Shown piece by piece: positions 4,459 to 53,278 of a DNA stretch of 64,000 bases. This DNA is from Elusimicrobiota bacterium (lineage in GTDB: Bacteria; Elusimicrobiota; Elusimicrobia; UBA1565; UBA9628). A program made the translations under genes and the position numbers. Positions within the stretch are counted from its first letter, which is position 1. Each line of letters starts with the position of its first letter. Location of the stretch: assembly GCA_016218545.1 (NCBI GenBank), contig JACRDQ010000030.1, positions 256,172 to 320,171 of the forward strand, written 5' to 3'. The notes below the pieces were generated by a model, which saw only the letters and a program-made list of their open reading frames with translations, was not told the origin of the DNA and searched no databases.

Positions 4459-5097
4459 ATGATGAAGATGAGGGGTCCTCTCAAGCCGGTCTTCCTGGCC
4501 GCCGTGCTGGGTATGTGCGGCGCTTCCGCTCAGGCGGAGTCCCAGCGACGCTTCGTGAGCGGGCAGATATGGAAGAACGGCTCCCACTCCTTTTCCATCA
4601 ACGAGTACTCCCTGGGCATCAGCCTCTGGGTCAATGCCTCGGGCTCGAACCTCTATTTCAGCGGCAGGCCCTTCTCCGGTTCGGTGTGGGGCTCCGGGAC
4701 GTACATGACCATCAGCGGCTCCGGCGTCCAGGCGACCGTCAGCAAGTGGGGGAGCAACTATTCCGTCAGGGGCACGTTCCACCCGGCGGCCGGCGGGCAG
4801 GCGGTGCGCGTGGACTTCACCATGCACGCTCTGGGCCGGGAGGACGACCCGGTGCGTCCTCCCTCCTACAGCGTCTACGACGGCGCCTCGGGTGCGAACC
4901 TCAACCTCAACCCCTCGGGCGCAGACGGCTACAGCATCTCAGGCTGGGTGGATACGGAGAAGTTCGGGGCCCACGGCACCTCCCTGGTCGCGCTGGTGGC
5001 CAGCGCCAGCCTCGAGGCCAGGCCCGAGCCCAAGGCCGCGCAAGAGCCGGCGAAGCTGCCCGGGGCCAGGCTGGCCCCCCTGCCTTCTCCTCTCTAG
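4459..5097 (+). CDS. Hypothetical secreted protein (signal peptide, Gly/Ser-rich)
   Basis: Signal peptide MMKMRGPLKPVFLAAVLGMCGASAQA. Lower-GC codon usage than neighbours. No recognisable domain. Confidence 0.6.
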   Translation: MMKMRGPLKPVFLAAVLGMCGASAQAESQRRFVSGQIWKNGSHSFSINEYSLGISLWVNASGSNLYFSGRPFSGSVWGSGTYMTISGSGVQATVSKWGSNYSVRGTFHPAAGGQAVRVDFTMHALGREDDPVRPPSYSVYDGASGANLNLNPSGADGYSISGWVDTEKFGAHGTSLVALVASASLEARPEPKAAQEPAKLPGARLAPLPSPL

Positions 5098-5157
5098 CTC
5101 CCCTTCGCCAGCGGGATCCTGACGCCCTGCCCCGCGCTCCCGGGTCCCGCGGCCGGA

Positions 5158-7314: not shown

Positions 7315-8064
7315 ATGAGTTATAATGGAAGGGTGACCCCTGGCAAGGCCGACACGAGCGGGCAGGAGGGGATCCGCTATAAGATCCTGACGGTGGATGA
7401 CGACGCCGAGTGCCTCTCCATGCTGCGGGTCTGCCTGAGCCGAGCCGGCCACACGGTGCTGGCCGCGCGCTCCGCCCGCGAAGCCCTGCTGGCCGCTGTG
7501 GACTCCGGTCCGGACCTCGTCATCTCGGACGTCCAGATGGCGGGCGATGACGGCTTCGAGCTCTCGCGCCGCCTCAAGGCCGGCCCCGCGACCGCGCGCA
7601 TCCCCATCATCCTCCTGTCCGGCGCCAGCAAGGATGTCCGGGACCAGCTCGAGGGCTTCGGCCTCGGGGTCGACGACTATCTGATCAAGCCTTTCGAGCC
7701 GGCCCTCCTCCTGGCCAAGGTCCACGCGGTCCTGCGGCGCTACGCCGTCGCCGAGGAGCTGCGGGACGTGGTGAAGTCCAGGGGCGTGGAGCTCGACGTG
7801 CAGGCGCGCACCGTGTCCTGCTCGGGGTCCCCGGTCGCGCTCAGCCGCAAGGAGTTCGACCTGCTCATCACCCTCATCCGCAAGCGGGGCCATGTCTTGA
7901 GCCCGTCGTTCCTCCTGGAATCGGTCTGGAGCCAGGACCTCGCGGAATACAACGATCCGCGCACGGTGAAGGTCCACATCTCGTCCCTGCGAAAGAAGCT
8001 GCCGCCCGCCGTGGCGCGGCGCATCATGACCGTGCCCGGCTCCGGCTACCGCTTCGACGCCTAG
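7315..8064 (+). CDS. OmpR-family two-component response regulator (REC + winged-helix DNA-binding)
   Basis: Receiver motifs ILTVDDD, DLVISDVQMAGDDGFEL, IPIILLSGA. C-terminal wHTH (VELDVQARTVSCSGSPVALSRKEFDLLITL ... VHISSLRKKL). Exact start uncertain. Confidence 0.88.
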   Translation: MSYNGRVTPGKADTSGQEGIRYKILTVDDDAECLSMLRVCLSRAGHTVLAARSAREALLAAVDSGPDLVISDVQMAGDDGFELSRRLKAGPATARIPIILLSGASKDVRDQLEGFGLGVDDYLIKPFEPALLLAKVHAVLRRYAVAEELRDVVKSRGVELDVQARTVSCSGSPVALSRKEFDLLITLIRKRGHVLSPSFLLESVWSQDLAEYNDPRTVKVHISSLRKKLPPAVARRIMTVPGSGYRFDA

Positions 8065-8170
8065 GCGCCGGCGGGCTTCTGCCGTCGACCGCGTCCCTGG
8101 CTTGACCTTTTTTTTACCGCCATCCGGCACACTATGATTGGGGACGGCGGACGTCGCGCCGTACGATGCC

Positions 8171-10285: not shown

Positions 10286-10286
10286 T

Positions 10287-11048
10287 ATGCCCGGCATGCC
10301 GTTGGTCGAGGCCTTTCGGGGCGACCTCACGACCCAGGAGCTCTGTCGTCGGGGACGCCTCAAGCTCAGGCGTTTCGATCCTCCCGGCTACGCGGAGGCC
10401 GTCGCCTTCTTCTCGGACGCGCGGGAAGGCGATCCGGAGTGCGCGGTCTCCGTGGCCGCCCTGGCCGAAGCCTACTCGCACTGGGGTTTCGCGAGGAAGC
10501 TCATAGGGCAGGAGAGCGAGAGCTATTTCCTCCTGGCTTTCGAGAACGCCTGCTTGGCGCTGGAGATGGCCCCTGAACTCGCCGAGACGCACCGGGCCAT
10601 GGCCGTCTGCCTGAGGCACCGGCCGCGCCGCGGCCCCGAGCAGGGACTCGCCGAGGCGTCGGCAGCGGTGAGGATCAACCCTTACGACGCCATGTCCTGC
10701 TACGAGCTCTGGCGGGCGATGGGCCATGACCCCGAGTCACCCATGATCCACAAGGCCCTGGCGCTCGATCCCGCGCTGCTGACCGTCAACAATGACCTGG
10801 CGGTGTCGCTCATGGAAGCGGAGCGCGCCCAAGAGGCCGGCTTCCATCTGCGCCAGTGCCTGCGGGTCAATTACGAGAACGCGGTGGCCCGATACAACAT
10901 GGTCCTGCTCCTCGCCTGCCGCGGCAAGACCGAGCAGGCGCAGACCCTGCTCGAGGCCTGGCTGAAGGGGCCCGATTTCGAGCCGCTGGTGCGCAGCGGG
11001 AACGCGTCGCTGGCTGACCCGCGCTCCACGGGGGGGATCCTCTTATGA
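10287..11048 (+). CDS. TPR-like repeat hypothetical protein
   Basis: Start is adjacent to the upstream stop. Helical repeat (TPR-like) composition. Stop overlaps the kinase start at 11045. Confidence 0.6.
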   Translation: MPGMPLVEAFRGDLTTQELCRRGRLKLRRFDPPGYAEAVAFFSDAREGDPECAVSVAALAEAYSHWGFARKLIGQESESYFLLAFENACLALEMAPELAETHRAMAVCLRHRPRRGPEQGLAEASAAVRINPYDAMSCYELWRAMGHDPESPMIHKALALDPALLTVNNDLAVSLMEAERAQEAGFHLRQCLRVNYENAVARYNMVLLLACRGKTEQAQTLLEAWLKGPDFEPLVRSGNASLADPRSTGGILL

Positions 11049-13216
11049 ATCGCTTCCAATCTCCGAGCCAAGATGCCGGGGGCAAGACGCCCGATCAACT
11101 CGGCGCAGAGTTCGTCCTCGAGTTGGGAAGGGCCGTCAAGGTCGTGTCCCTGTACTACGCGAACCACCCGACCGCCCTTCAGACCCTCCGGCAAGTCCAC
11201 GCCATCCTGGAGCGGCTGTTGACCGGCCTTTCCGCGGGGCGCGTCACCTTCTCCCTGGCGGCCGGACGCTGGCTCAGGGATGGTTCCCCCCTGCCTGCCC
11301 CGGGTCCGGGCGCGGACTCCCTGCTCGGCGTGTTCGAGACCCACTCCATCGAGAGCCTCACCTTCCTGGGAGGCATCAGGCCCTTCGAGCTGGTCGCTCT
11401 GGCCGAGGTCGCGGCTTCCGTCCCGACGCGTCCGGGCCGCGCCGCGCTCCAGGAGTTCCTCCAGCAGAGAGGAGTGACCCACATCAAAGCGGACATCGAG
11501 CACTATTCCAAGGAGTCGGCTCCGCAGGGCTCGGACGGTTCCCTGGCGTCCGGCTTGCCGGCCGCCTCCTCGTCCGCTGCCAAGCCCCCTGTCGCGCCTT
11601 CCGTTCTCAGGCCTGCCGCGCCTGCGCCCGCTGGCAAGCCTTCAGCGCCTGCGTCCGCTGCCAAGCCCTCCGCGCCTGCGCCCGCTGGCAAGCCTTCGTC
11701 GCCTGCGCCCGCTGCCAAGCCCTCCGCGCCTGCGCCCGCTGGCAAGCCTTCGTCGCCTGCGCCCGCTGCCAAGCCCTCCGCGCCTGCGTCTGCTGCCAAG
11801 CTTGCCGCGCCGTCGCCTTCGGTCGCTCACAGCGTCCCGGCGCAGCCTCCCAAGCCGGCTCTCCCGCCCGTAGAGGTCCGTGCCTCCGCGGCCGGGATGT
11901 GGGGCCCGCCGTCGAGCCCTGCTCCCGACTCTCACGGGGACAGGCTTGGCGTCAGTTTCGGCAGCGTGCTTCGCAAGCTCGTGGAGACCGCGGTGCAGGA
12001 TCCCGACGAGAGGTCCCACATCTACGAGGACGTGGTGGCCATGGTCAAGGAGACCTTGGACCGCCACGTCGACCAGGCGACGCAGGCGCTCTCGGAGGAG
12101 AAGGCGCGCATCGTCAGGCAGGCCGCCAGGACCGAACGGGTGCTCACCACGGTGGCGGACGGAAAGTTCACCGTGGATAAAGAGGGAAGGGTCCTCATGA
12201 TGAACGCCAGCGCCGAGATGATCACGGGAAAGCGTCTGGCCGACCTCGCGGGCAAGCACATCACCGAGGGCGTCAAGGAGGGGGAGCACATGGTCGCGCT
12301 CGCCGAGGACCTGGCGTCCCCGGCCGTGGACGGAGCAGGGGTCACGGTCGTGGCCGATGAGGCGGTGGGCGGCGCCATGCGCCGCTCCCTGGCCCTGGTC
12401 CGAGACGACGCGGGCCGCGTGGTCGGCACGTACGCCTCCCTCCCCGACGCCGCCAAGTTCAAGGAAGCCCAGCGCCTGCAGGAGGAGTTCCTCTCCCGGG
12501 TGACGCACGACCTCCAGTCCCCGCTGGCCGCCATCTGCAGCGGACTCGAGCTCCTCGCGGACAAGGTCAGCTCCGTGGGCGGTCCCGAGACGGCCCAGTA
12601 CATCGACATCTGCATGCGCAACAGCCGTCACCTCTCGGGGATGATCCGCGAGATCCTCGATTTCTCGAAGCTCGACTCGGGCAAGATGACGGTGCACCCG
12701 GCCCCTGTCTCGGCCTCAAGCCTCCTCAAGGAGGCGGTGGAGAGCCTCCAGCCCTGGGCCAAGACCAGGAAGCTCCGCCTGGAAGCGCGTTCTGCCCACG
12801 CGGATTTCTCGGTGCTGGCGGACCAGCCGCGCGTCGTCCAGGTGCTGACCAACCTCATCTCGAACGCGGTCAAGTCCACAAAGGAAGGGGGCTCGATCAC
12901 CGTGGCGGCGGTCCCGGCAGCGGAGGACGGGCAGGGGATCTTCGCGGTGAAGGACACGGGGAGCGGGATCTCCCCTGAGGACCTCGGCCGCATCTTCGAG
13001 AAGTTCGTCCAGGTCGGGGACGGCCGCAGGGACGGGGTGGGACTCGGGCTTTCCATCGTCCAGGAGTTCGTCCGATTGCACGGCGGCGCGGTCTGGGCCG
13101 AGAGCGAGCCCGGCAAGGGTTCGGTGTTCTACTTCACGCTCCCCTTGTCGCAAGCCGGAGTCATCGGCCCCGCGGCGCAGGAGGTCCTGCCGCCTTCGGG
13201 GCGGCCCCGGCACTGA
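11045..13216 (+). CDS. Sensor histidine kinase (N-terminal unknown domain, Pro/Ala-rich tandem-repeat linker, PAS, HisKA, HATPase_c)
   Basis: H-box HDLQSPLAAI. N/G boxes NLISNAVKST, VKDTGSGIS, GLGLSIV. PAS-like segment DGKFTVDKEGRVLMMNASAEMITG. Confidence 0.88.
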   Translation: MNRFQSPSQDAGGKTPDQLGAEFVLELGRAVKVVSLYYANHPTALQTLRQVHAILERLLTGLSAGRVTFSLAAGRWLRDGSPLPAPGPGADSLLGVFETHSIESLTFLGGIRPFELVALAEVAASVPTRPGRAALQEFLQQRGVTHIKADIEHYSKESAPQGSDGSLASGLPAASSSAAKPPVAPSVLRPAAPAPAGKPSAPASAAKPSAPAPAGKPSSPAPAAKPSAPAPAGKPSSPAPAAKPSAPASAAKLAAPSPSVAHSVPAQPPKPALPPVEVRASAAGMWGPPSSPAPDSHGDRLGVSFGSVLRKLVETAVQDPDERSHIYEDVVAMVKETLDRHVDQATQALSEEKARIVRQAARTERVLTTVADGKFTVDKEGRVLMMNASAEMITGKRLADLAGKHITEGVKEGEHMVALAEDLASPAVDGAGVTVVADEAVGGAMRRSLALVRDDAGRVVGTYASLPDAAKFKEAQRLQEEFLSRVTHDLQSPLAAICSGLELLADKVSSVGGPETAQYIDICMRNSRHLSGMIREILDFSKLDSGKMTVHPAPVSASSLLKEAVESLQPWAKTRKLRLEARSAHADFSVLADQPRVVQVLTNLISNAVKSTKEGGSITVAAVPAAEDGQGIFAVKDTGSGISPEDLGRIFEKFVQVGDGRRDGVGLGLSIVQEFVRLHGGAVWAESEPGKGSVFYFTLPLSQAGVIGPAAQEVLPPSGRPRH
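11610..11800 (+). repeat. About three copies of a 60-nt tandem repeat inside the kinase gene, encoding P-A-P-A-G-K-P-S-(S/A)-P-A-(P/S)-A-A-K-P-S-A
   Basis: Near-identical 60-nt units are visible at 11612-11800 (gcctgcgcccgctggcaagccttc.tcgcctgcg.ccgctgccaagccctccgc). Confidence 0.8.
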
Positions 13217-13242: not shown

Positions 13243-13298
13243 TCCGGGCGACGTCATTGCGGGGGCGGGAACAAGTATGTTACCTTGAAGCCTCCCGC

Positions 13299-14021
13299 AT
13301 GAGCGATACCTGGTACCAGGAACTGGCCCTCCAGTTCGAGGACGGCACGACGGAGTCCGTTTTCCTGGACATGACCCGCAGCGGCAGGCACAAGCCGCGC
13401 GTGGCGGCCATGCCCGCCCCGTGGACGAAGCTGGAGTTCGAGCGCTGCCCGAGCTGCACGCTTCCTCCGGAGGCGGGCTGGTGCCCGGCCGCCCTCTCGC
13501 TGGAGGAGACCATCTCCAGGCTGAGCCAGCGGACCTCCATCGAGATCGTCACCGCGACCTCGGTGGACAGCGAGAACCGCTGTACGACCGTGAAGTGGCC
13601 CCTCCAGCAGGTGGGAGCGGCCTTCGTCCAGATCGCGGTCTTCTCCAGCGGGTGTCCGGTGGGAGCGCAGTTCCGGTCCATGCTCCAGGACCTGCGGCCC
13701 TTCTCCACGACCAAGGAGGTCGGCCGCCACATCGTGCTCAAGCACCTGCTGCGCCACGCCGGCTCGGTCGATGGGGCCAAGGCCGCGGTCCTCGCGAGGC
13801 TGGGGCCGCTCCGGGAGGTCTTCGGTCAGCTCTTCAAGCGCATCCAGGGCATCCCCCGCGGGGCCTCCCAGGACGCCATCCCGAACTCGATCGTGCACGT
13901 GCACGCCATGACCCAGCATCTGGAGCTCATGGTGGAGGACCTCGTGGAGGACCTCCTCAGGGAGACCCAGGTGCCGCCGACTCCGCAGCCCAAGAAGCCT
14001 CCGCCGGATCCGTCGACTTGA
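13299..14021 (+). CDS. Hypothetical protein (CxxC...C motif)
   Basis: Strong GC3 codon bias throughout. No recognisable domain. 3' end overlaps the convergent binding-protein gene by 65 nt. Confidence 0.6.
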   Translation: MSDTWYQELALQFEDGTTESVFLDMTRSGRHKPRVAAMPAPWTKLEFERCPSCTLPPEAGWCPAALSLEETISRLSQRTSIEIVTATSVDSENRCTTVKWPLQQVGAAFVQIAVFSSGCPVGAQFRSMLQDLRPFSTTKEVGRHIVLKHLLRHAGSVDGAKAAVLARLGPLREVFGQLFKRIQGIPRGASQDAIPNSIVHVHAMTQHLELMVEDLVEDLLRETQVPPTPQPKKPPPDPST

Positions 14022-15177
14022 ACTTCCGCTGGTTGTAGTCCGCCCGCGTCACCGTGATGAACCTCTTGGTGGTGTCGCCCTTGTGGTCGAAGACGATCGT
14101 CCCCATCATGCTCTCGTGGCGGATCTCCCTGAGGACGTCGAGGAGCGGCTTGCGGCGCTCGAGCGAGACGGCCAGGGCCGAGACGACCAGGCGTCCCGCC
14201 TCGTAGGCGTAGTGGTCGAAGGTCCTCGGCCCGGCGCCGCCCTCGGGGCGCTCCCGCCGGTAGCGCTCGACGAAGTCCCCGGCGCTGGGCAGGTGCTCCA
14301 CCGGGATGCCGCCCACCGTGAAGTACGCTCCGTGGACCGCGGGGCCGGCGATCTTGAAGATCTCGGGGGCCTTGGCGCCGTCGCCGGTCATGAAGGCTGC
14401 GGTCATGCCCTGGCCGCGCGCCTCCTTGACGATGCGCCCGGCCTCGTTGTAGTCCCCGCCGAAGAAGATGCCGTCCGGCTTGAACCGGGAGGCCCACTCG
14501 ACGACTTCCCTGAAATCCGCGGCGCCCTTGGCCACGGCCTCGGCCGCCACCACGCGGCCTCCCTTCTCCGTGAAGCGCTTGGAGAACTCCTCGGACAGGC
14601 CGCGGCCGTAGGCGGTGCCGTCGTGGAGGACCGCGAAGGCCCTGAGGTTGAGGCGGTCGTAGGCGAACTCCGCGGTGAAGGAGCCCTGGATGTCGTCGGC
14701 AGGCGGCAGGCGGAAGACCACGCGGGGCCAGGACCAGTCCGGCTTGGTCTGCTGGACCGTGAGTTCCGGGTTCGTGGCCGAGGGGGTGATCATGGGGATC
14801 CCGGCCTTGGCGTAGACGCGGGAGGCGGCCAAAGAGCAGCCCGAGGTGAGGTGGCCCACCACGGCCTTGACCTTCGGGTCGGCGGCGATGCGCTCCGCCA
14901 CCCGCACGGCCTCCTCGGGCCGGGCCTGGTCGTCGAAGGCGCTGACCTCGATGCGGGTGGGGGGGAACTCGATGGGCTTGGCCTCGGCTGCGGCCATGCG
15001 CACCGCGGCCAGGAGGCCCTCGCCGTCGGCCGCCAATGGGCCGCTCAGGGGTGCTGCCACCGCGATGCGGACCGTCTTGGGCTCCCCGCCGCCGCAGGCC
15101 GCCAGCAGGGCCGCGAGCGCCAGGGCCTTGGCCCAGGCTGGCTGCGGCCGGCCGGCGGGGCGGGGGGGAGGCTTCAT
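13957..15177 (-). CDS. Branched-chain amino acid ABC transporter substrate-binding lipoprotein (LivJ/LivK-like, Peripla_BP_6)
   Basis: Lipobox LAACGGG. Type I periplasmic binding fold blocks (VKAVVGHLTSG, IPMITPSATNPELT, FFGGDYNEAG). GAGGGG RBS. Confidence 0.85.
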   Translation of the reverse strand: MKPPPRPAGRPQPAWAKALALAALLAACGGGEPKTVRIAVAAPLSGPLAADGEGLLAAVRMAAAEAKPIEFPPTRIEVSAFDDQARPEEAVRVAERIAADPKVKAVVGHLTSGCSLAASRVYAKAGIPMITPSATNPELTVQQTKPDWSWPRVVFRLPPADDIQGSFTAEFAYDRLNLRAFAVLHDGTAYGRGLSEEFSKRFTEKGGRVVAAEAVAKGAADFREVVEWASRFKPDGIFFGGDYNEAGRIVKEARGQGMTAAFMTGDGAKAPEIFKIAGPAVHGAYFTVGGIPVEHLPSAGDFVERYRRERPEGGAGPRTFDHYAYEAGRLVVSALAVSLERRKPLLDVLREIRHESMMGTIVFDHKGDTTKRFITVTRADYNQRKFKSTDPAEASWAAESAAPGSP

Positions 15178-15706
15178 CCCCTCAGGTAGAACCTCAGGTT
15201 CTCGACGAGGTCCACGGCCTTGCCGAGCTGGTACTGGCAGGACTCGAGCTCCTTGGCCAGCGAGTCCTCGGGGAGGCTCGCGCGCGCCTCCTCGGCCAGG
15301 AGTTTCAGCGAGGCCCCGGCGTTGACGAGGAGGCTCTTGAGCTCCCGGGTCATGACCGAGGCCGTCTGGTTGGCCGACTCCTCGCGCCGGGTCTGGTCGA
15401 GCGCGGTGTCGAAGGCCGTCTTCTGGGCCTGGGCCGCGGTCTCCTCGACCTCGGAGACCTTCATCCTGGAGGCGATGAGCGCGGCGTGCTCGCGCTCGAG
15501 GTCCCGGCGGACCTCGACGAGCTGGCTCTCGCAGCGCGCGACCTTGGCCCGGAGCTTGCCGATGAGCGCCTCGCGCTGGCGGATCGGGTCGAGGAGCTTG
15601 CGGATGCGCTCGACCGGGCCGCGGAGCGACTGGGGCAGGCGGCTGGAGAGCTCCTTGAGCGCGGCGTCGGCCCTCTCGAGCGCGGCCTGGCTGAACGCCA
15701 TGTTCA
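15174..15706 (-). CDS. Hypothetical coiled-coil protein
   Basis: Start at MNMAFSQ. Heptad-rich sequence. Stop overlaps the binding-protein start (ATGA). True start may be the second ATG (MAFSQ) if the transcript is leaderless. Confidence 0.55.
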
Positions 15707-15776
15707 TATTATGGCAAAAATACCCGGGAAAATGGGGAAAAGCCCGCCGGGTCGGGAAAAACATGATTTCCGTCAT

Positions 15777-15805
15777 TTGAATTAAACGTCCCAAACGGAT
15801 AAAAT
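15777..15805 (+). promoter_or_regulatory. Sigma70-like promoter TTGAAT-N17-TAAAAT in an AT-rich divergent intergenic region, upstream of the radical-SAM/prenyl operon
   Basis: Hexamers 15777-15782 and 15800-15805 with an exact 17-nt spacer. The 130-bp region is strongly AT-rich relative to its surroundings. Confidence 0.45.
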
Positions 15806-15839
15806 ATGTTTTGCCCTTGAGTTCTTCCGGGGCCTTCCA

Positions 15840-16805
15840 GTGCCGACCCGAACGCAGACGACGACCAGCCTCGAGGCTTCCCTGGGACGGGTGCGCGCAG
15901 GCATGCAAGCCCGCGCCAAGCGCATCTCCGGCCGCGTGGGCTCCGCCCTGGCCGAGCACGTGTCCCGGCCGGGCAAGATGCTCCGGGCGAGGTTCGCGGT
16001 CCAGGTCGGGGCCGCCCTCGGGGTGGCGCCGGGAAAGACCGAGACGGTCGCCCGCGCCATGGAGCTGGCGCACAACGCCTCTCTCCTCCACGACGATTGC
16101 GTCGACGACGCCTCCCTGCGTCGGGGCCTGCCCACGCCCAACAGCGTCTACGGCTCGACCGTGGCGCTCCTCCTGGGGGACATCGCCTTCACCCAGTCGC
16201 TCGAGGAGGCGCTCGAACTCGGCCCCAAGGCCGTGGAGCGCCTCGTGAGCGCGGCGCGCGAGATGGCCATCGGCGAGCTCCAGGAGGAGTTCCTGCGCGG
16301 CTCCGTGGACGTGACCCTCGAGTCCTACATGGGGGTCGCGGCGCGCAAGACCGGGGCCCTCTTCGAGTGGGGCGGCTTGACGCTCTCGGACCTAAGCCCC
16401 CTCGAGCACGCGGCCGCCGACCCCGCCAGGCTGGGCTCGGCGCTCGGCATCCTCCTGCAGATGGTCGACGACATCCACGACTACACCCTGACGGACGCCG
16501 TGGCCGGCAAGGAGCGGGCCAAGGACGCCAAGATCGGGCGCGTGACCCTTCCCGGGGTCTTTGCGCTCGCGGACGCCTCCCGCCGGGGGCGCTTCCTCGA
16601 GTTGTGGGCCGCGCTGCGCCGGGACCCGCGCGCCGCCTCGGACCTGGCGCGCTTCCTCGACGAGAGCGGGTCGCTCGACGAGGCCCGCGCCGAGTGCCGC
16701 AAGGTGGTCGGGACCATCCTCGAGCTGACCCGGCGCCTGCCGGTCCGGGGAGAGGTCGACGAGGTGGCCGAGTTCGTCTCGGCCATGGCCGAGAGGGAAT
16801 TCTGA
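15840..16805 (+). CDS. trans-Polyprenyl diphosphate synthase (IspA/IspB family)
   Basis: First Asp-rich motif LLHDDCVDDASLRRG and second motif QMVDDIHDY. GTG start at 15840; an ATG at M22 (15903) is an alternative. Confidence 0.85.
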   Translation: MPTRTQTTTSLEASLGRVRAGMQARAKRISGRVGSALAEHVSRPGKMLRARFAVQVGAALGVAPGKTETVARAMELAHNASLLHDDCVDDASLRRGLPTPNSVYGSTVALLLGDIAFTQSLEEALELGPKAVERLVSAAREMAIGELQEEFLRGSVDVTLESYMGVAARKTGALFEWGGLTLSDLSPLEHAAADPARLGSALGILLQMVDDIHDYTLTDAVAGKERAKDAKIGRVTLPGVFALADASRRGRFLELWAALRRDPRAASDLARFLDESGSLDEARAECRKVVGTILELTRRLPVRGEVDEVAEFVSAMAEREF

Positions 16806-17254
16806 TGGGCTACGCCGACCTCATCCGGCGGGCCTGGCGGACCGGGCGCTTCGCCGCCTCGGTCCGGTCGTCCGGGAAGAAGGGCGCCGCGGGCGTCCGT
16901 CCCGGGGAGAGCCGCGGCTCCATCCGCGGCGAGATGGAAGAGATCGTCCGCCGCGAGTCCGCCGACGCGCTCGGCTTCCTCGCGCCGCGCGGGGAGGGAA
17001 TCATGAAGCTCGCACCGTTCGTGAAATTCCGTGAAGAGAAGTTCGGCGCGGTCCTGTTCGAGACCCGTTCCGAGAAGGTGTTCACCCTCAATCCGACGGC
17101 CGCGGACGTGGTGCGGGAGCTCCTCGCCGGCGCCTCGGAGGGCGAGATCGGAGAGCGCCTCAAGGGCCGCTACAGCGACCCCTCGGGCAGGCTCGCCGAC
17201 GAGGCCAAGGCCCTCGTGCGCCAGCTCCGCGACAAGGGGCTCATCGCGGACTAG
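16805..17254 (+). CDS. PqqD-family RiPP recognition element protein with a 66-aa N-terminal extension
   Basis: The PqqD-like domain spans residues 67-149 (MKLAPFVKFREEKFGAVLFETRSEKVFTLNPTAADVVRELLAGASEGEIGERLKGRYSDPSGRLADEAKALVRQLRDKGLI). ATG at 16805 is coupled to the upstream stop (TGATG) and the frame has high GC3 throughout. An internal ATG at 17003 carries its own strong GGGAGGGA RBS. Confidence 0.75.
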   Translation: MGYADLIRRAWRTGRFAASVRSSGKKGAAGVRPGESRGSIRGEMEEIVRRESADALGFLAPRGEGIMKLAPFVKFREEKFGAVLFETRSEKVFTLNPTAADVVRELLAGASEGEIGERLKGRYSDPSGRLADEAKALVRQLRDKGLIAD

Positions 17255-17255
17255 C

Positions 17256-18254
17256 ATGGCTTCGAGGAAGGACGCGGTCAAGGCCGGAGGCCGGGCGTCC
17301 CGGGCGCCCTTGGAAGAGGCGTTGGCGCCCGGGATGCGGGCGCCGCTCTACATCGGCTGGCAGCTGACCAATGCCTGCGACCTGGCGTGCGTCCACTGCA
17401 TCGAGGAGTCCGGGCCGGGCCGCGCCTTCAAGGACGAGCTGACCCGGGAGCAGGCCTTCCGTATCCTCGAGCAGATCAAGACCGAGCAGGTGCCCTACGT
17501 CGCCTTCTCCGGGGGCGAGCCCTTCCTCCACCCGCACTTCCTGGAACTGGCCGCGTTCCTCGGAGACGCCGGGGTGTCGCTCAAGGTCGAGACCAACGGC
17601 CGCCACCTCACCGAGGCGGCCGCCTCGGCGCTGCGGGACCACGGAGTCCGGGCCGTGCAGGTCAGCCTCGACGGCGCCACCCCCGAGGCCTACCGCAAGG
17701 TGCGGCCCTCCGGCGACCACGCCCGGGTCCTGGCAGGCATCCGCCTCCTGCGCTCCAGGGGCGTGGAGGTGGAGGTCAACTTCGTCCCGACGCGGCACAA
17801 CGTCCATGAGATCGGAGCCGCCGTGGACCTGGCCTTCAGCGAGGGGGTCTCCGGCTTCTACACGGGCAGGCTCATCCTGGCCGGCCACGCCGCCAAGGCG
17901 CGGGACCTGGCCCCGACCCAGGAGCAGTACGACGCCTTCTTCGCGTGCCTCAAGGCCAAGGCCCAGGAGTACAAGGGCCGCATGACCGTGCGCTATCACG
18001 AGCTGGGCATCGCGCAGGAGGTCCGCTACCGCATGGCCAACCCCGCGGCCCTCTTCGTCATCCTGCCCGACGGCAGGGTGAAGCTCCTCAACGCCCTGCC
18101 GTTCGTGTGCGGCGACCTGCGCGAGCAGAGCCTCACCGAGGTCTGGAAGGCCTTCCTCGCGGGCTGGAAGTCGCCGCGGGTGGCCGACTTCGTCGGCCGC
18201 CTGGAGGCCGACCCCGGGCTCCTGCAAGGACTGCACCGATGGATCCCTTTGTGA
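17256..18254 (+). CDS. Radical SAM enzyme 1 (SPASM/twitch-subfamily-like, peptide-modifying type)
   Basis: WQLTNACDLACVHC is the CxxxCxxC motif. GGEP motif AFSGGEPFL. Few cysteines in the C-terminal domain. Begins 2 nt after the PqqD-like stop. Confidence 0.85.
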   Translation: MASRKDAVKAGGRASRAPLEEALAPGMRAPLYIGWQLTNACDLACVHCIEESGPGRAFKDELTREQAFRILEQIKTEQVPYVAFSGGEPFLHPHFLELAAFLGDAGVSLKVETNGRHLTEAAASALRDHGVRAVQVSLDGATPEAYRKVRPSGDHARVLAGIRLLRSRGVEVEVNFVPTRHNVHEIGAAVDLAFSEGVSGFYTGRLILAGHAAKARDLAPTQEQYDAFFACLKAKAQEYKGRMTVRYHELGIAQEVRYRMANPAALFVILPDGRVKLLNALPFVCGDLREQSLTEVWKAFLAGWKSPRVADFVGRLEADPGLLQGLHRWIPL

Positions 18255-19198
18255 CCGAGTCCGGCGTGGAGACCGACGGCCGCGCCGCTCCGGCCCGCGG
18301 CGGCGGGAGCGGGCGGCCGAATCTGGCCCTGCGGATGGCGTCTGCGGTGCGCTACCGCTTCTTCCTGTACGCGGGACTCCTCCCGTACTTCCTCGGCGCG
18401 GCCTGGGCCCTGCGCATGGAGGGAGCCTTCGCGCCCGGCCGCTTCTGGCTGGGCCTGCTGGGCATCGGCCTGTCCGTCGTGGGTGTTGAGTCCTTCAACG
18501 AGTACTTCGACGCGCGCATGGGCACGGACCGCGTCTTCAACCCTTCCGACGACGAGTACATCCCCGCCTGGATGCTCTGGCTGGGGGTCGCGGCGTTCGC
18601 GGCCGCGGCGTGCGTGGGCATGGCCCTGGCCCATGCCGGAGGCTGGCCCATCCTCCTCTACATGGGGCTGGGCGGCATGGCCGCGGCCTTCTACGTGGGC
18701 CCGCCTTTCCGCTGGGCCTACCTGGGCCTCGGCGAGACCTCGATCGCCTTGTCCTACGGGCCCTGGATGACCCTGGGCAGCATCCACCTGCACACGGGCG
18801 CTTTCTCCTGGCGCGGCCTGGCGGCCGCGCTCGTGCCCGGCTTGCTGGTGGCGTCGCTCGCCGTGGTCAACGAGATCCCGGATTTCCACCAGGACCGGCT
18901 CGTGGGCAAGCGCAACCTCGTGGTGCGGCTGGGCCGCAGGAACGGGGTCGCCCTGTACCTCGCCCTGGCCGGGGCGGGCTTGGCCGCGTGCTTCGCAGGC
19001 GCGGCCGCGGGCTGGTTCCCGGTCGCGTGCGGCCTGGCCGGGGCCCTGGGCCTGCCGTGCTGGTTCTCGAGCGCTCGGACCGCGGTCAAGGCGTGGGACA
19101 CGCCGCGGCTTTTCGTGCCCGCGGTGCGGGACATCGTGCAGTGCTATCTCGTGACCGTGAGCGCCTTCATCATGGCGCTCGCCGTGAGGCTGCCGTGA
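18239..19198 (+). CDS. UbiA-superfamily membrane prenyltransferase, MenA-like
   Basis: Asp-rich motifs NEYFDARMGTD (E. coli MenA: NDYGDAVKGID) and NEIPDFHQDRLVGKRN. About 8 TM helices. Overlaps the radical-SAM 1 end by 16 nt. Confidence 0.82.
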   Translation: MDPFVTESGVETDGRAAPARGGGSGRPNLALRMASAVRYRFFLYAGLLPYFLGAAWALRMEGAFAPGRFWLGLLGIGLSVVGVESFNEYFDARMGTDRVFNPSDDEYIPAWMLWLGVAAFAAAACVGMALAHAGGWPILLYMGLGGMAAAFYVGPPFRWAYLGLGETSIALSYGPWMTLGSIHLHTGAFSWRGLAAALVPGLLVASLAVVNEIPDFHQDRLVGKRNLVVRLGRRNGVALYLALAGAGLAACFAGAAAGWFPVACGLAGALGLPCWFSSARTAVKAWDTPRLFVPAVRDIVQCYLVTVSAFIMALAVRLP

Positions 19199-20109
19199 GG
19201 ATCGCGTCCTTCGACGTTCCCCTGGCCGCTGCCTGGCGCCTGACCGACCGGTGCGACCTCTCCTGCCGGCACTGCCTCAACGCTTCCGGGCCCAAGGCTG
19301 ACACGGCCGCCGAGCTCTCCCGGCCCGAGGCTCTCAAGCTGGCCCGGAGCATCGGCTCAGCCCAGGTCCCCTACGTCATCCTCTGCGGGGGCGAGCCCAT
19401 GCTGAGCCCCGACTTCTGGCAGGCGGCCGAGACCCTGGGCGAGGCAGGCGCGTGGCTCAAGGTGGAGACGCACGGCCAGAACCTCGGGCGCACCCAGGCG
19501 GAGCGCCTGGCCAAGCTCCCCATCCGCTCGGTCCAGGTCTCTCTCGACGGGGTCACCCAGCAGGCTTACGAGTCCCTGCGGCCAGGGGCCTCCCTGGCCA
19601 AGACCTTGGAAGCTTGCCGCGAGGTGCGGCGTCAAGGCATGCCCCTCGAGATCTCCTTCGTCCCGGTCCAGGGCAACATCCACGAGGCTCCGGCGGTCAT
19701 CGACCTGGCCCTGGACCTGGGCGCCTTCCGGTTCAACACCGGGACCCTCATCAAGCGCGGCCGCGCCGCAGCCGCTTGGAAGAAGCTCCTTCCTGATGCC
19801 GAGTCCATGGCAGGCTTGCTCGCGGTCCTCACCCGTCGCGAAGCCACCCTGGCCGGGAGGCTCGAGCTCTGCTTCAGGCCTTTCAATTTCGAAGACCAGG
19901 TCCGCGCCGAACGCGCGGAGCCCTCAGGCACGCTCACGATCCTGCCTGACGGCAAGGTCCCTGTCTCGGCCTCCTCGGACGTCGTCTGCGCCGACCTTCG
20001 GACGCAGACGGTCAGGGAGGCCTGGCGCGCTTACTTGGCGGCGCACGGCAAGGGGCCACGATCGGAAAGATGGGTCGGCTCGTGTCTTGAGCCGGCTACC
20101 CGGTCCTAG
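19195..20109 (+). CDS. Radical SAM enzyme 2 (paralog of 1 and 3)
   Basis: GTG start overlaps the prenyltransferase stop (GTGA). AWRLTDRCDLSCRHC and CGGEPML motifs. Confidence 0.8.
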   Translation: MRIASFDVPLAAAWRLTDRCDLSCRHCLNASGPKADTAAELSRPEALKLARSIGSAQVPYVILCGGEPMLSPDFWQAAETLGEAGAWLKVETHGQNLGRTQAERLAKLPIRSVQVSLDGVTQQAYESLRPGASLAKTLEACREVRRQGMPLEISFVPVQGNIHEAPAVIDLALDLGAFRFNTGTLIKRGRAAAAWKKLLPDAESMAGLLAVLTRREATLAGRLELCFRPFNFEDQVRAERAEPSGTLTILPDGKVPVSASSDVVCADLRTQTVREAWRAYLAAHGKGPRSERWVGSCLEPATRS

Positions 20110-20129
20110 GCCGGGATTTAGGAGACAGC

Positions 20130-20255
20130 ATGAGAGACAAGAAGAACGTGACGGATGGAAAGGCGAAGGCCGACAAGAAGCCCGTGTGGCAGACCCCTTC
20201 TCTCGAAGAGGTCACCGAGCGTGTCATGGCCCAGCCGTACATCAGGTTCACGTGA
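20130..20255 (+). CDS. Candidate RiPP precursor peptide, 41 aa: MRDKKNVTDGKAKADKKPVWQTPSLEEVTERVMAQPYIRFT
   Basis: Absent from the ORF track because it is under 60 aa. AGGAGA RBS 4-5 nt before the ATG. Sits 20 nt after radical-SAM 2 and its stop overlaps the GTG of radical-SAM 3. Lys-rich leader, lower GC. Shares KKP, LE(E)VT and Y-I features with PqqA. Confidence 0.65.
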   Translation: MRDKKNVTDGKAKADKKPVWQTPSLEEVTERVMAQPYIRFT

Positions 20256-21226
20256 CGCACCCGAGGGGGGCGGCGGTAGGAGACTACCGCGCCCCCCTCT
20301 TTGTCGCGTGGCAACTCACCAACCGCTGCCGCGGCCGCTGCCTGGCCTGCTGCGAGGAATCCGGTCCGGGCAAGGGAATCCGCCAAGGCGGGTCCTGGCA
20401 GGCTGAGCTCACCAAGCAGGAAGCCCTCCGCGTCAGCCGCGACATCGCGGCCTCCGGGGTCTCCTACGTGGCGTTCGGCGGGGGGGAACCCATGGAGGTG
20501 CCGCACTTCTGGGACATCCTCTCCATCCTCTCCAAGGGCGGGGTCCGCATCAAGATCGAGACCAACGGCGGGACCATCGGCCGCTCCCAGGCCAAGCGCC
20601 TCTCCGCCTTGGGCGTGTCCTCCATCCAGATCAGCCTCGACGGCCCCACGGCCCGCGAGCACGAGGCCTTGAGGCCCGGCTCGAGCTTCAACAAAGCGGT
20701 CCGGGCGGTCCGCTGTCTGGCTGAGGAAGGGCTCGGGCCTGAGGTCGTGTTCATCCCCATGAAGAGGAACGTGGGCCAGGCCGTCAAGGTCTACCGATTG
20801 GCGGCCAGTCTCGGAGCCAGGGTGCTTGCGACCGGCCCTCTCATGCGCCTGGGACGCGCCGGAGCAGCATGGAAGGAACTCGCCCCGTCGGCCGGGCGAT
20901 GGCGGACCGCGGTCCGGGCGCTCAAGGCCGAGGCCGCCCGTGCCAAGGCAGGGCCCAAGCTCTCCATCTATCCCTGGGGCATCCAGAGGGAGATCGAGAC
21001 CAGGCTCGAGCATCCCCAGGCCATGGTCCTCGTGGTGCCTGACGGCAAGGTCAAGCTCCTCAATGCCCTCCCTTTTGCTCCAGGCGACCTGCGGCGACAC
21101 TCCCTGGCCCAGGCCTGGACGCGCTGCCTCGGAGCTTGGCGCGACCCCAAGGTGCGGGCTTTCTGCCGCAAGGCCGTGAAGGACCCCGGGCTCCTGGCGC
21201 ACGCCAACGAATGCTGGCCCGCCTAA
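20252..21226 (+). CDS. Radical SAM enzyme 3 (paralog of 1 and 2)
   Basis: YRAPLFVAWQLTNRCRGRCLAC aligns to the radical-SAM 1 N-terminus. FGGGEPM motif. GTG start overlaps the peptide stop. Confidence 0.82.
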   Translation: MTHPRGAAVGDYRAPLFVAWQLTNRCRGRCLACCEESGPGKGIRQGGSWQAELTKQEALRVSRDIAASGVSYVAFGGGEPMEVPHFWDILSILSKGGVRIKIETNGGTIGRSQAKRLSALGVSSIQISLDGPTAREHEALRPGSSFNKAVRAVRCLAEEGLGPEVVFIPMKRNVGQAVKVYRLAASLGARVLATGPLMRLGRAGAAWKELAPSAGRWRTAVRALKAEAARAKAGPKLSIYPWGIQREIETRLEHPQAMVLVVPDGKVKLLNALPFAPGDLRRHSLAQAWTRCLGAWRDPKVRAFCRKAVKDPGLLAHANECWPA

Positions 21227-22286
21227 TCCAAGCAGGCTGAGAAGAGCGCGGGGAGCTCGCCGAGCCTGCCCGCCTCGGCGAGCTTGCCCAGGTCGAAGAG
21301 GATGAGGCCTCCGGAGCCTCCCTGCCAGGCGGCGTCGGCGGCGGCCCTGAGCTCGCCGGGTCCGAGGGGATGCTCCGCGTCTCCCACGAAGATGATGGGC
21401 CAGACCGGCTTGCCCGAATCGGCCTTGACGGCCATGGAGGCGTCCGTGATCCAGGACGCGGGCCTGCGCAGGAGCGCGTGGTACGCCATGGGCGAGACCA
21501 CGTCCGCTGCCCTGCCCATGAGGCGGTGGTCCTGGCCGAGGATCTCGAGGACGGCCCCGCGCTTCTCCGAGCGCTCCCAGGGCACGGCGAAGTAGCCCAC
21601 CAGGGCCGCGGGGTCGGCCGCGTGGACCGCGTCTGCGACCTCGCTGACGAGGCCCGCGATGCTCGCGGTCTTGAACGCGGTCCAGCGCTCCTTGTGGTCC
21701 GACAGGATCCAGCGCGCCTTCTCCCTGGCCGTGAGCTCCTCCGGGACCGCGACCCCGGTTTCCTTGCGGAACTCCCTCAGGCACACCGGGCAGAAGCAGG
21801 TCTGCTCGAGATGGGGCTCGGGGACCTCCCAGTGGCCGGGATAGCGGATGAAGTCGAGCCACACGCCGTCGACTTCCTGCTTGCGCACCAGGGACACGGC
21901 GCGCTTCTTGATGTCCAGCCTGAGCCAAGTCTGGTTGGGGCAGACGGCGGCGTACCACTTGACCTTGGCGAGGGGTTCGCCGACCTCGCTGACCGGCCTG
22001 CTCTCGGGCCGCGTCTTCCAATGACGCTCTCCCGCGAAGGCTGTGAGCTCCGCGAACACGCGGATGCCACGGCCGCGCAGGGCCTTGCGGAGGAGCGGGT
22101 CCTTGTAGCCGCCGAAGACCGCGTTCACGCCCCAGGAGGAGAGGGCCTCGGCGATCCGCTCCGGGGTCTTGCCCTTGAAGGCCGCGGACTTGGGGTCGAA
22201 GCCGTAGACCCCGCACACCGGTCCGGCGTCAGCGGCAAGAGCGGGCTGGACCGCGAGGATGAGGCCGGCGAGGATGAGGAGGAGCA

Positions 22287-49192: not shown

Positions 49193-49213
49193 AGCATTTG
49201 ATATGATGGTCGG

Positions 49214-53259: not shown

Positions 53260-53278
53260 ACCACGACGGAGGATCGCC

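Follow-up and report, generated by a model that had tools for sequence, protein, structure and literature searches.

A conserved gene cassette combining a PqqD-family protein, radical SAM enzymes, a MenA-like prenyltransferase and a 41-residue peptide in Elusimicrobiota and other bacteria

Seven open reading frames (ORFs), all on the forward strand, form a closely packed operon spanning positions 15840-21226 of the window, the 64,000-nucleotide stretch of an Elusimicrobiota contig analysed here. They are present at the coordinates claimed in the preliminary description, whose domain identities were borne out by Pfam (PF00348, PF05402, PF04055 in three proteins, and PF01040). The features are as follows.

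15777-15805, forward strand: sigma-70-like promoter, TTGAAT-N17-TAAAAT (motif search)
15840-16805, forward strand: ips, trans-polyprenyl diphosphate synthase (GTG start, 321 aa)
16805-17254, forward strand: pqqD, PqqD-family peptide-binding (RRE) protein (149 aa)
17256-18254, forward strand: rs1, radical SAM enzyme (332 aa)
18239-19198, forward strand: ubiA, MenA/UBIAD1-like integral-membrane polyprenyltransferase (319 aa)
19195-20109, forward strand: rs2, radical SAM paralog (GTG start, 304 aa)
20120-20124, forward strand: ribosome-binding site (AGGAG), 5 nt upstream of the ATG of the peptide gene (read from the sequence)
20130-20255, forward strand: precursor peptide (41 aa; core VMAQPYIRFT at 20223-20252)
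20252-21226, forward strand: rs3, radical SAM paralog and final gene of the operon (GTG start, 324 aa)

Most gene junctions are as first described: ips and pqqD meet in TGATG (16803-16807), rs1 and ubiA overlap by 16 nt (18239-18254), GTGA overlaps join ubiA to rs2 at 19195 and the peptide gene to rs3 at 20252, and the 20-nt gap between rs2 and the peptide gene contains the AGGAG element. The exception is the pqqD/rs1 boundary at 17254/17256, where the gap reported as 2 nt is a single nucleotide (TAG-C-ATG). A convergent gene ends at 21226, the same point as rs3. The promoter is likewise present, as the single promoter-like site within 15100-21700 (0.2 expected from shuffles), and its intergenic setting is indeed AT-rich, with a GC fraction of 0.449 vs 0.698 for the window. 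Its -35 and -10 elements are retained in two close relatives (L005 and L006), in which the remaining spacer and the flanks diverge, and a third locus (L007) retains the -10 element.

The precursor peptide comprises a Lys-rich leader with a W-x-x-P-x-L motif, followed by the C-terminal core VMAQPYIRFT. Across 73 loci, the last eight residues before the stop codon (AQPYIRFT) show no amino-acid change and every degenerate codon among them varies synonymously; this small ORF is under strong purifying selection at the protein level. The C-terminus of all copies reads P-[Y/F]-I-R-F-T-COOH, Phe replacing Tyr in four peptide clusters. The coding pattern occurs on at least 120 metagenome contigs, and about 94 peptide clusters at 50% identity were found among 1.84e9 representatives. 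Database copies are all annotated as 'hypothetical protein', and comparison of the peptide with family models matched no family.

In the PqqD protein, PF05402 matches residues 82-147 (3.2e-11), behind an Elusimicrobiota-specific N-terminal extension of ~65 aa; proteobacterial orthologs are 83-86 aa long. Its top NCBIfam match is the lasso PqqD chaperone family NF033530 (47 bits vs a cutoff of 70), and the KKWQxPxL stretch of the peptide leader weakly matches a lasso-leader model. None of the cassette proteins attains a curated cutoff in the NCBIfam profile search.

The three radical SAM proteins each match PF04055, with rs2 and rs3 being 41% and 39% identical to rs1. The CxxxCxxC motif is accompanied in rs1 by one invariant C-terminal Cys (C285) and in rs2 by a conserved GGEP motif and the semi-conserved Cys141/226/265, while rs3 has CxxxCxxCC and no further conserved Cys. 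The SPASM/twitch cysteine motif that had been anticipated is absent from all three proteins, which are predicted to be without auxiliary Fe-S clusters. To our knowledge, SPASM or twitch cysteines serve all characterised peptide cross-linkers of the PqqE, MftC and SkfB types, and their lack in all three paralogs is a caveat that counts against a peptide-maturation reading. MftC is the top NCBIfam match for all three, at scores far below cutoff (128/265), and the tetrapyrrole-acting, non-peptide AhbD/NirJ models score almost equally. Among PDB sequences, SkfB (6e-28) is the best match, PqqE follows at 6e-17, and GDGT-MAS is also found; an AF2 model of rs1 (pLDDT 85) has SkfB (TM 0.70), PqqE (6c8v, second) and SuiB as its best folds. 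The affinities of these enzymes thus appear to lie with peptide maturases. Identity with MqnC/MqnE or tetraether synthases was considered and rejected, the best sequence and fold matches being the peptide maturases MftC, PqqE, SkfB and SuiB, all below cutoffs, with AhbD/NirJ close behind.

The ubiA product matches PF01040 (3e-15), contains the conserved motifs NEYFDxxxGTD and NxIPDxxQDxLVGKRNLVVRLGR, and has UBIAD1 (8djk) as its best PDB relative. Its orthologs from three phyla miss all curated MenA cutoffs (best 118 bits vs 277; TIGR00751 52-73/102), and the cassette UbiA forms a distinct MenA/UBIAD1-like clade. The gene also lies between radical SAM genes in every type-1 locus (the architecture of the window) examined; both points speak against the possibility, raised at the outset, that it is simply the organism's menA. 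The ips product matches PF00348 (2e-40), with NCBIfam matches to solanesyl, heptaprenyl and octaprenyl synthases and encapsulin cargo that are all below cutoff. Both Asp-rich motifs are conserved, and small residues (S, A) at positions -4/-5 before the first are taken by us to indicate a medium- or long-chain product. The gene lies upstream of pqqD in 39 of 41 Elusimicrobiota-type loci vs none of 31 proteobacterial ones; its membership of the operon therefore stands for the window and not for a universal core, and ips is a lineage-specific accessory gene predicted to supply the prenyl donor. The Planctomycetota cassette carries a different synthase (30% identical), sited downstream of ubiA, and polyprenyl-PP synthase genes were independently recruited in the two phyla.

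Relatives of rs1 occur in 274 species genomes, among which 80 loci were examined. The six-gene core (PqqD, rs1, MenA-like UbiA, rs2, 41-aa peptide, rs3) has an identical order in all 68 sufficiently long species-level loci, which represent other species of Elusimicrobiota and Alpha-, Beta- and Gammaproteobacteria, all metagenome-assembled genomes (MAGs), and the core enzymes are ~50% identical between loci. Contrary to one of the refuting cases set out in the preliminary description, the peptide and PqqD are never lacking in the 68 loci that reach the peptide's position. In the reverse direction, starting from 120 metagenome contigs carrying the peptide, a radical SAM gene lies upstream in 68 of 93 and downstream in 84 of 99 contigs with enough sequence. 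The exceptions include 21 contigs ordered peptide-PqqD-radical SAM-UbiA and two orphan peptides; at L126 and L161 the peptide is present and the enzymes are absent within the flank examined. Only uncultured MAGs were encountered as carriers, and the gene neighbourhoods compared contain no conserved protease, exporter or hydroxylase.

In Planctomycetota, a second architecture (type-2) consists of the peptide, PqqD, one rs1-like radical SAM protein and UbiA, optionally joined by a polyprenyl synthase. Three radical SAM paralogs, as originally described, are thus a feature of type-1 loci and not of this form; rs1 is the paralog closest to the type-2 enzyme (41% identity, 297 bits) and the putative ortholog of the sole radical SAM protein in this minimal system. 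PqqD-radical SAM-UbiA adjacency is common to both architectures. In the Planctomycetota loci, an NQR-type operon immediately precedes the cassette, and quinol-dependent modules follow it downstream, either NrfD with a Mo-pterin oxidoreductase or NapC/NirT with multihaem cytochromes. The nqrA-F genes are directly upstream in L204, L205 and L206 (NqrB score 364.9 vs a cutoff of 349.9), and nqrF in six further type-2 contigs; the contig survey identified eight (L106, L120, L127, L135, L155, L159, L163 and L204). In this phylum, genes for a receiver protein and for a 6-TM histidine kinase also follow the cassette; two-component genes are absent from the Elusimicrobiota and proteobacterial loci. 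In the surroundings of the 34 proteobacterial loci compared, neighbours include NapC/NirT (8), MtrC/OmcA-like (7), membrane Fe-S/CCG (7) and SRPBCC (COQ10-like; ~11) proteins, with respiratory-type genes varying in position and orientation. No respiratory genes are found among the neighbours within the window, and lineage synteny could partly account for the respiratory linkage.

Several known systems resemble parts of this cassette. Mycofactocin biosynthesis likewise uses a short precursor with a conserved aromatic-bearing C-terminal core, a separate PqqD-family chaperone (MftB) and a radical SAM maturase (MftC), and the cassette core shows a similar cofactor-like invariance across phyla. However, the cassette proteins score below the MftC (128/265) and MftB (23/33) cutoffs and lack the SPASM cysteines of MftC, the peptide ends in ...PYIRFT rather than ...GVY, MftD/E/F are missing, and UbiA and the isoprenyl synthase have no counterpart in mycofactocin loci. 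PQQ biosynthesis shares the PqqD domain (PF05402) and the PqqE-like fold, and the W-x-x-P element with an aromatic residue ~14 residues later is, in our estimation, reminiscent of PqqA. Nevertheless, the initial label 'PqqA-like' has to be withdrawn, as the peptide has no E-x-x-x-Y (Met or Thr occupies Tyr-4) and no family match; moreover, Tyr can be Phe, scores are low (PqqE 83/381, PqqD 19/46), and pqqB, pqqC, pqqF and auxiliary clusters are lacking. MenA/UBIAD1 enzymes share the UbiA-superfamily membrane fold and the NxxxDxxxxxD and NxxxDxxxD...GKRxLxVRLG motifs, and together with IspB/HepT they recall the long-chain-type trans-IPPS partner and the quinone-dependent respiratory enzymes adjoining in several lineages; here, by contrast, UbiA is embedded among peptide and radical SAM genes, and men or mqn head-group genes are absent from the cluster. 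In lasso-peptide systems, the PqqD-like B1 protein binds a YxxPxL leader motif, which the weak lasso-leader match recalls, but the cassette contains neither lasso cyclase nor leader protease and leaves maturation to radical SAM proteins. Neither a publication in the literature searched nor a family model describes this gene combination, in line with the original claim of novelty.

With about an even chance of being right, the seven genes are interpreted as one operon for ribosomal-peptide maturation ending in lipidation, whose product likely serves as a redox cofactor or electron carrier bound to the membrane. The PqqD/RRE domain would bind the leader, whose W-x-x-P-x-L motif resembles the YxxPxL bound by lasso-type RREs, and would present the C-terminal core to the radical SAM enzyme(s). 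By hydrogen abstraction, these may alter the P-[Y/F]-I-R-F-T kernel, for instance through an aromatic-residue cross-link or a C-terminal transformation, after which the MenA/UBIAD1-like enzyme would attach a long polyprenyl chain to the modified peptide or a fragment, giving a membrane-anchored, peptide-derived molecule. The invariance of the core over three phyla appears comparable to that of the cofactor precursors PqqA and MftA, unlike antibiotics or pheromones, and this invariance, together with the repeated linkage to quinone-dependent respiration, makes a redox role the most likely one. The central reading of the preliminary description, a PqqD/radical SAM/precursor module joined to UbiA and polyprenyl-PP supply, is supported and withstood the refutation tests set beforehand. 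If true, it would define a previously undescribed lipid-anchored, peptide-derived molecule tied to respiration and spanning three bacterial phyla.

Two unrelated functions might instead be juxtaposed, an ordinary menaquinone-type ubiA/ips pair and a separate soluble RiPP or cofactor module, in which case the placement of ubiA-ips beside nqr in Planctomycetota would be natural. MenA models are the best family matches of UbiA, UBIAD1 is its best structure, and the Phe-variant locus L208 contains a peptide/PqqD/radical SAM module with no UbiA after the radical SAM gene. This arrangement is nonetheless considered unlikely: ubiA in the window overlaps rs1 by 16 nt and rs2 by 4 nt, its placement is constant across type-1 loci and its adjacency to PqqD and radical SAM genes is retained in both architectures, the MenA cutoffs are missed in three phyla, and proteobacterial carriers are expected to encode a ubiquinone UbiA and an IspB of their own at other loci.

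Somewhat less probable is a non-peptide substrate, either a polyprenyl lipid (as for Tes/GDGT-MAS) or a tetrapyrrole (as for AhbD/NirJ), with the peptide held by PqqD as a structural, regulatory or scaffold subunit. The near-equality of AhbD, NirJ and AhbC with MftC in score, the GDGT-MAS match and the lack of auxiliary clusters typical of peptide cross-linkers agree with this proposal. Opposed to it are the variable leader and invariant C-terminal core, as in RiPP or cofactor precursors, the peptide maturases as top fold matches, the universal co-location of the peptide gene with the enzymes, and leader-peptide binding, which is the only role of PqqD/RRE domains that we know of.

A ComX-like signalling peptide, lipidated by UbiA with the IPS chain and with the neighbouring two-component system as its sensor, is improbable. 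Like the Bacillus isoprenylated pheromone, the cassette combines a ribosomal peptide with an isoprenoid-pathway enzyme, ComQ being polyprenyl-synthase-like, and the kinase and receiver genes of Planctomycetota recall comQXPA. Yet the cassette transferase is a UbiA-type membrane enzyme with a separate synthase, com loci have no radical SAM or PqqD components, and the core is invariant rather than polymorphic between strains; in addition, a conserved exporter or leader protease is absent, two-component genes are restricted as noted above, and long-chain polyprenyl donors would yield a poorly diffusible signal. An antimicrobial or surface-active lipopeptide is very improbable: the gene set (precursor, RRE, radical SAM, lipidating enzyme) is formally like lipidated RiPP clusters and ABC-transporter genes come after one Phe-variant locus, but sequence invariance is extreme, distribution is wide and single-copy in three phyla, conserved immunity, export or protease genes are absent, and the cassette is embedded within respiratory operons.

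Within the favoured interpretation of a lipidated, peptide-derived product, the Phe variants bear on the chemistry. At L210, a Phe-variant peptide accompanies an intact UbiA gene, and the phenol OH of Tyr, as prenyl acceptor or quinone precursor, would therefore be dispensable there. These rare Tyr-to-Phe variants argue against a strictly PQQ-like chemistry and shift the balance from the 'PQQ-like quinone' option towards that of a lipidated peptide.

The window derives from a metagenome-assembled genome of Elusimicrobiota. The operon occupies positions 15840-21226 of the forward strand and comprises the seven open reading frames (ORFs) listed in the preliminary description, each of which was recovered at its reported position when the sequence was re-read:

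15840-16805, forward strand: ips, polyprenyl diphosphate synthase, GTG start
16805-17254, forward strand: pqqD, PqqD-like RiPP recognition element (RRE)
17256-18254, forward strand: rs1, first radical-SAM (rSAM) paralog
18239-19198, forward strand: ubiA, UbiA-family prenyltransferase
19195-20109, forward strand: rs2, second rSAM paralog, GTG start
20130-20255, forward strand: precursor peptide of 41 aa, MRDKKNVTDGKAKADKKPVWQTPSLEEVTERVMAQPYIRFT
20252-21226, forward strand: rs3, third rSAM paralog, GTG start

The tight junctions reported between these genes also hold, except that the gap at 17254/17256 measures 1 nt rather than 2, and AGGAG lies 5 nt ahead of the peptide ATG. A scan of 15100-21700 gives a single sigma-70-like site, the proposed promoter (TTGAAT-N17-TAAAAT, 15777-15805), where 0.2 would be expected; it lies in an intergenic spacer of 45% GC, compared with 70% for the window. 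Both hexamers are retained in loci L005 and L006 of close relatives, with the -10 element also kept in L007, while the spacer around them has diverged. At its 3' end the operon is abutted by a convergent gene. Internal terminators were rejected, since the two terminator-like hairpins inside the operon (18344 and 19092, both within coding sequence) compare with 2.2 expected by chance. In 13 Elusimicrobiota loci ips is immediately preceded, on its own strand, by a gene for a MarR/HTH_20-type regulator (for example at 5059-5586 of locus L052); the window lacks this gene and instead encodes, divergently on the reverse strand, a 175-aa product without a Pfam match (15177-15701).

Pfam searches confirmed the assignment of the operon proteins to the polyprenyl_synt, PqqD, Radical_SAM (three proteins) and UbiA families. 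The rSAM proteins, paralogs with 36-41% mutual identity, all match PF04055 and share invariant CxxxCxxC and GGEP motifs. Their best NCBIfam model is MftC (TIGR03962; 128, 99 and 108 bits against a cutoff of 265), with AhbD, NirJ, PqqE and others close behind, while the PQQ-system model TIGR02109 gives 83-87 against 381 and the GeoRSP model TIGR04303 gives 89, 49 and 62 bits against 400. Membership in the MqnC or MqnE family, which had been raised as a possible objection, finds no support, as neither is among the best 25 NCBIfam families for any of the three proteins. The nearest solved proteins to a profile of rs1 homologs are SkfB (6e-28) and PqqE (6e-17), and the AlphaFold model of rs1 (pLDDT 85) is closest in fold to three RiPP maturases, SkfB (TM 0.70), PqqE and SuiB. 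The SPASM/twitch architecture suggested for these enzymes was not recovered: none of them matches PF13186 or carries a SPASM or twitch Cys motif, and conserved Cys residues outside the core amount to one invariant C-terminal residue in rs1, three scattered residues in rs2 and none in rs3. A fourth radical-SAM gene in the window (34751-35857) appears HemW/HemN-like by eye and is unrelated to the operon paralogs.

PqqD matches PF05402 at 43.8 bits (gathering score 23.4) and is encoded in all mapped loci; its scores against NCBIfam models are 19.4 for TIGR03859 (cutoff 46), 23.2 for TIGR03967 (cutoff 33) and 47.4 for the lasso PqqD chaperone NF033530 (cutoff 70). In Elusimicrobiota the protein has a conserved N-terminal extension of ~65 aa (16805-17002 in the window) with no family match, a feature lacking in the proteobacterial and Planctomycetota orthologs, which measure 83-86 aa.

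The precursor peptide consists of a variable leader and an invariant core. AQPYIRFT and the following stop are identical in 73 loci, while the enzymes are only ~45-60% identical to those of the window, and every degenerate codon of this tail varies synonymously among the same loci (four codons for Ala, three for Pro, three for Ile, four for Arg and three for Thr). Because the tail is fixed while its codons drift, the pattern provides direct evidence, at the level of sequence, that the peptide gene is translated and under strong purifying selection. A profile search run exhaustively over 1.84 billion representatives returned 98 matches, about 94 of them true, with the core tails VMAQPYIRFT (68 clusters), IMAQPYIRFT (13), VTAQPYIRFT (2) and the Tyr-to-Phe form [I/L/V]MAQPFIRFT (4), together with single Y-to-C, Q-to-R and T-to-S variants. 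The kernel P-[Y/F]-I-R-F-T is constant and C-terminal in every case. The leader contains a W-x-x-P-x-[LMIV] motif, and its KKWQxPxL stretch weakly matches a lasso-leader model, features that are consistent with recognition by an RRE. The PqqA-like character ascribed to the peptide in the preliminary description could not be substantiated: similarity to PqqA or MftA was undetectable even at E <= 10, the residue at Tyr-4 is Met or Thr, and E-x-x-x-Y does not occur. Database copies are all labelled 'hypothetical protein', and the window's own copy was found only in a Logan assembly, being absent from the NCBI annotation.

When the rs1 alignment was scanned against one genome per species, relatives were found in 274 species. 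The best 80 loci from these 274 species are all from metagenome-assembled genomes (MAGs) of Elusimicrobiota and of Alpha-, Beta- and Gammaproteobacteria, and mapping of the window proteins onto them revealed an invariant order of pqqD, rs1, ubiA, rs2, peptide and rs3 (type 1). Orthologous loci devoid of the peptide or PqqD, a weakness the earlier reading had anticipated, did not emerge, as the peptide is present in 68 of the 68 loci that extend past its position. All-against-all clustering of the ORFs in the loci yielded no accessory gene (protease, exporter, hydroxylase or methyltransferase) common across phyla; an SRPBCC and methyltransferase pair is restricted to a few Proteobacteria.

In a reverse test, metagenome contigs scanned for DNA encoding VMAQPYIRFT and a stop gave at least 120 matches, most with a type-1 neighbourhood. 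Among the matches listed, 21 contigs carry the peptide, pqqD, one rSAM gene and ubiA, sometimes followed by ips (type 2), and one further arrangement (contig L193) encodes ips, the peptide, pqqD and two rSAMs. The type-2 carriers are Planctomycetota (Phycisphaerales and Sedimentisphaerales MAGs). The single type-2 rSAM resembles rs1 more than rs2 or rs3, which suggests that these two arose later by duplication. Two matching contigs contain no pqqD, rSAM or ubiA gene within 5.7 kb (L126, peptide ending at 1070) or 3.7 kb (L161, peptide ending at 1220) downstream, with both contigs numbered in the direction of the peptide gene; a NuoG/HoxU-like gene precedes the peptide in the former, and an apparent CDP-alcohol phosphatidyltransferase gene, as read from the sequence, follows it in the latter. 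Among the Phe variants, locus L208 (1143-4200) encodes the peptide, pqqD and an rSAM followed by ABC-transporter genes, Peripla_BP_2 and FecCD genes standing in the place of UbiA. This locus prompted the idea that the presence of Tyr tracks that of UbiA, which was ruled out by locus L210 (356-2563), a Phe variant with an intact UbiA. The L210 UbiA has a shortened first Asp-rich motif (NEYFDPADRV) and is followed by an LPG_synthase_TM gene. The two other Phe-variant loci, L207 and L209, are truncated.

UbiA matches PF01040 at 56.6 bits (threshold 34.2), and its motifs NEYFDxxxGTD and NxIPDxxQDxLVGKRNLVVRLGR, both conserved in 77 orthologs, are of the MenA/UBIAD1 type; UBIAD1 is its sole solved relative by sequence. 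The main rival explanation, already raised in the preliminary description, regards ubiA and ips as ordinary quinone genes beside an unrelated RiPP module. It is disfavoured, however, as UbiA fails all MenA models and ubiA is nested between rSAM genes in every type-1 locus. The window protein scores 102 against 264 and 63 against 102 for the MenA equivalogs, and the Planctomycetota and proteobacterial orthologs reach at best 118 against 277 and 52-73 against 102. As every MenA equivalog cutoff is missed, these scores place the orthologs in a distinct MenA-like clade. ChlG and BchG form a second tier of UbiA family matches.

The ips product matches PF00348 at 139 bits, and its LLHDDCVDD and VDDIHD motifs are conserved in 41 orthologs. 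It has small residues at -4/-5 before the first Asp-rich motif, a feature that in such synthases points to a medium- or long-chain product. The gene lies directly upstream of pqqD in 39 of 41 Elusimicrobiota-type loci and in none of 31 proteobacterial loci. The synthase gene in Planctomycetota lies on the opposite side of the cassette and its product shares only 30% identity with that of the window's ips, which indicates that the prenyl-donor gene was recruited independently in this phylum.

The cassette is repeatedly found among respiratory genes. In Planctomycetota, it lies directly behind an nqrABCDEF-type operon (NqrB above its curated cutoff, NqrE and NqrF just below theirs); in eight type-2 metagenome contigs the gene immediately ahead of the peptide is nqrF, and L205 and L206 have the full nqr operon ahead of the cassette. 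Downstream, both of these loci encode a two-component system, followed in L205 by an NrfD/4Fe-4S/molybdopterin oxidoreductase set and in L206 by a NapC/NirT-type cytochrome and multihaem cytochromes. In other type-2 contigs, NuoF/NuoG-like genes or a gene for an NrfH-like cytochrome occupy the position immediately upstream. The nqrABCDEF-like operon and one-rSAM cassette span 5751-13233 in contig L204, 3239-12943 in L205 and 1895-10996 in L206, where the five cassette genes themselves take up 7434-10996; as the NqrA-like subunit carries RnfC-like 4Fe-4S motifs, this operon looks like a hybrid NQR/RNF complex. The 34 proteobacterial loci include a NapC/NirT tetrahaem quinol dehydrogenase (PF03264, 1e-73) in 8, an MtrC/OmcA-like decahaem cytochrome in 7, a ~669-aa membrane Fe-S/CCG protein in 7 and an SRPBCC/COQ10-like protein in about 11. 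These neighbours occur upstream or downstream and on either strand, and the NapC copies are mutually 31-46% identical. The ~669-aa protein (4428-6437 in L075, and also in L003, L039, L041, L042, L074 and L080, all betaproteobacterial) flanks the cassette on one side or the other, depending on the locus; its N-terminal multi-helix membrane domain, two 4Fe-4S motifs and CCG domain resemble a DsrMK/HdrED-like fusion. Within the 64 kb of the window itself, no respiratory genes were found.

None of the seven products scores above a curated NCBIfam cutoff, and GeoRSP, mycofactocin, PQQ, NirJ/AhbD, lasso and MenA identities were rejected as all sub-threshold. By its sequence features, the cassette belongs to RRE/radical-SAM peptide maturation, with which it shares a co-located precursor, a PqqD-like RRE and an rSAM core with a maturase-type fold. 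It differs from the lasso pathway in that NF033530 falls below its cutoff and protease and cyclase genes are absent from all loci; from the SPASM/twitch subfamily in lacking the auxiliary-cluster Cys motif; and from MenA in that the window, Planctomycetota and proteobacterial proteins all score below the equivalog cutoffs. Unlike PQQ loci, it misses the PqqE and PqqD equivalog cutoffs and lacks E-x-x-x-Y in the peptide as well as pqqB and pqqC; unlike mycofactocin loci, it misses the MftC and MftB cutoffs, its peptide has no match and the cassette contains no other mft genes. The chemistry is also unlikely to copy that of PQQ or mycofactocin, because Phe variants occur and auxiliary clusters are absent. 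The searchable full-text literature, which does not extend to subscription journals, contains no description of the cassette or peptide, nor does any curated family. The apparently new elements are the coupling of RRE/radical-SAM maturation to a UbiA-type membrane prenyltransferase, rSAM maturases free of auxiliary clusters, the invariant C-terminal kernel and the linkage to respiratory genes.

The best-supported reading of the observed genes, their order and conservation, the selection on the peptide and the neighbourhood statistics is that RRE-guided rSAM enzymes would mature the C-terminal kernel of the peptide, after which the MenA-like enzyme would transfer a long polyprenyl chain, giving a membrane-anchored, peptide-derived product. 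The prenyl acceptor could be an aromatic ring after modification; it could also be the C-terminal carboxylate, by a chlorophyll-synthase-like esterification considered because ChlG/BchG form the second tier of UbiA matches, or the Thr hydroxyl, the Arg side chain or a released fragment. A role as a membrane cofactor or electron carrier is favoured over one as an antibiotic or pheromone, because the core shows cofactor-like invariance, a polyprenyl synthase was recruited twice independently, and the cassette is repeatedly embedded among quinone-dependent respiratory modules. A more specific version is offered tentatively and judged rather unlikely as a whole: a membrane carrier or cofactor of a class not described before, made from a P-[Y/F]-I-R-F-T fragment by auxiliary-cluster-free rSAM processing and bearing a long polyprenyl tail added by the MenA-like enzyme, might serve NADH dehydrogenases of the NQR type and quinol oxidoreductases of the NapC/NrfH/NrfD type in uncultured members of the Planctomycetota, Elusimicrobiota and Proteobacteria.

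To our knowledge, PQQ and mycofactocin are the only free redox cofactors known from ribosomal peptides, and mycofactocin was reportedly first predicted from a comparative-genomic signature of this kind. Like both of these systems, the cassette combines a short, invariant precursor with a PqqD chaperone and radical-SAM maturases; its membrane polyprenyltransferase and dedicated polyprenyl supply are additional, and in several lineages it lies inside respiratory gene clusters. If the proposal is true, a third redox cofactor derived from a peptide would join PQQ and mycofactocin, in the form of a 'ribosomal lipoquinone-like' carrier; as a lipid-anchored molecule it would extend known respiratory-chain chemistry. 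It would also imply a new UbiA-family activity on a peptide or peptide-derived acceptor and a new activity for radical-SAM maturases working without auxiliary clusters, and would account for a set of genes, so far without annotation, that occurs in at least 274 species-level genomes and is widespread in soil and groundwater metagenomes.

Several other features of the window were recorded. Upstream of the operon, a signalling cluster (7315-13216) encodes an OmpR-type response regulator, a 253-aa ORF without a family and a PAS histidine kinase, as well as a T2SSE/PilB-type secretion ATPase with a fused receiver domain (8138-10285). The next two genes, encoding a DUF6901 protein (13257-14021, forward strand) and a Peripla_BP_6 amino-acid-binding protein (13957-15177, reverse strand), are convergent and, under the present ORF calls, share about 65 nt at their 3' ends. 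Further downstream, 47429-53259 encodes a row of three secreted TPR paralogs, the last of which (50869-53259) is a fusion with a Ser/Thr protein kinase domain, and a serine carboxypeptidase-like gene (53189-54802) follows this trio.
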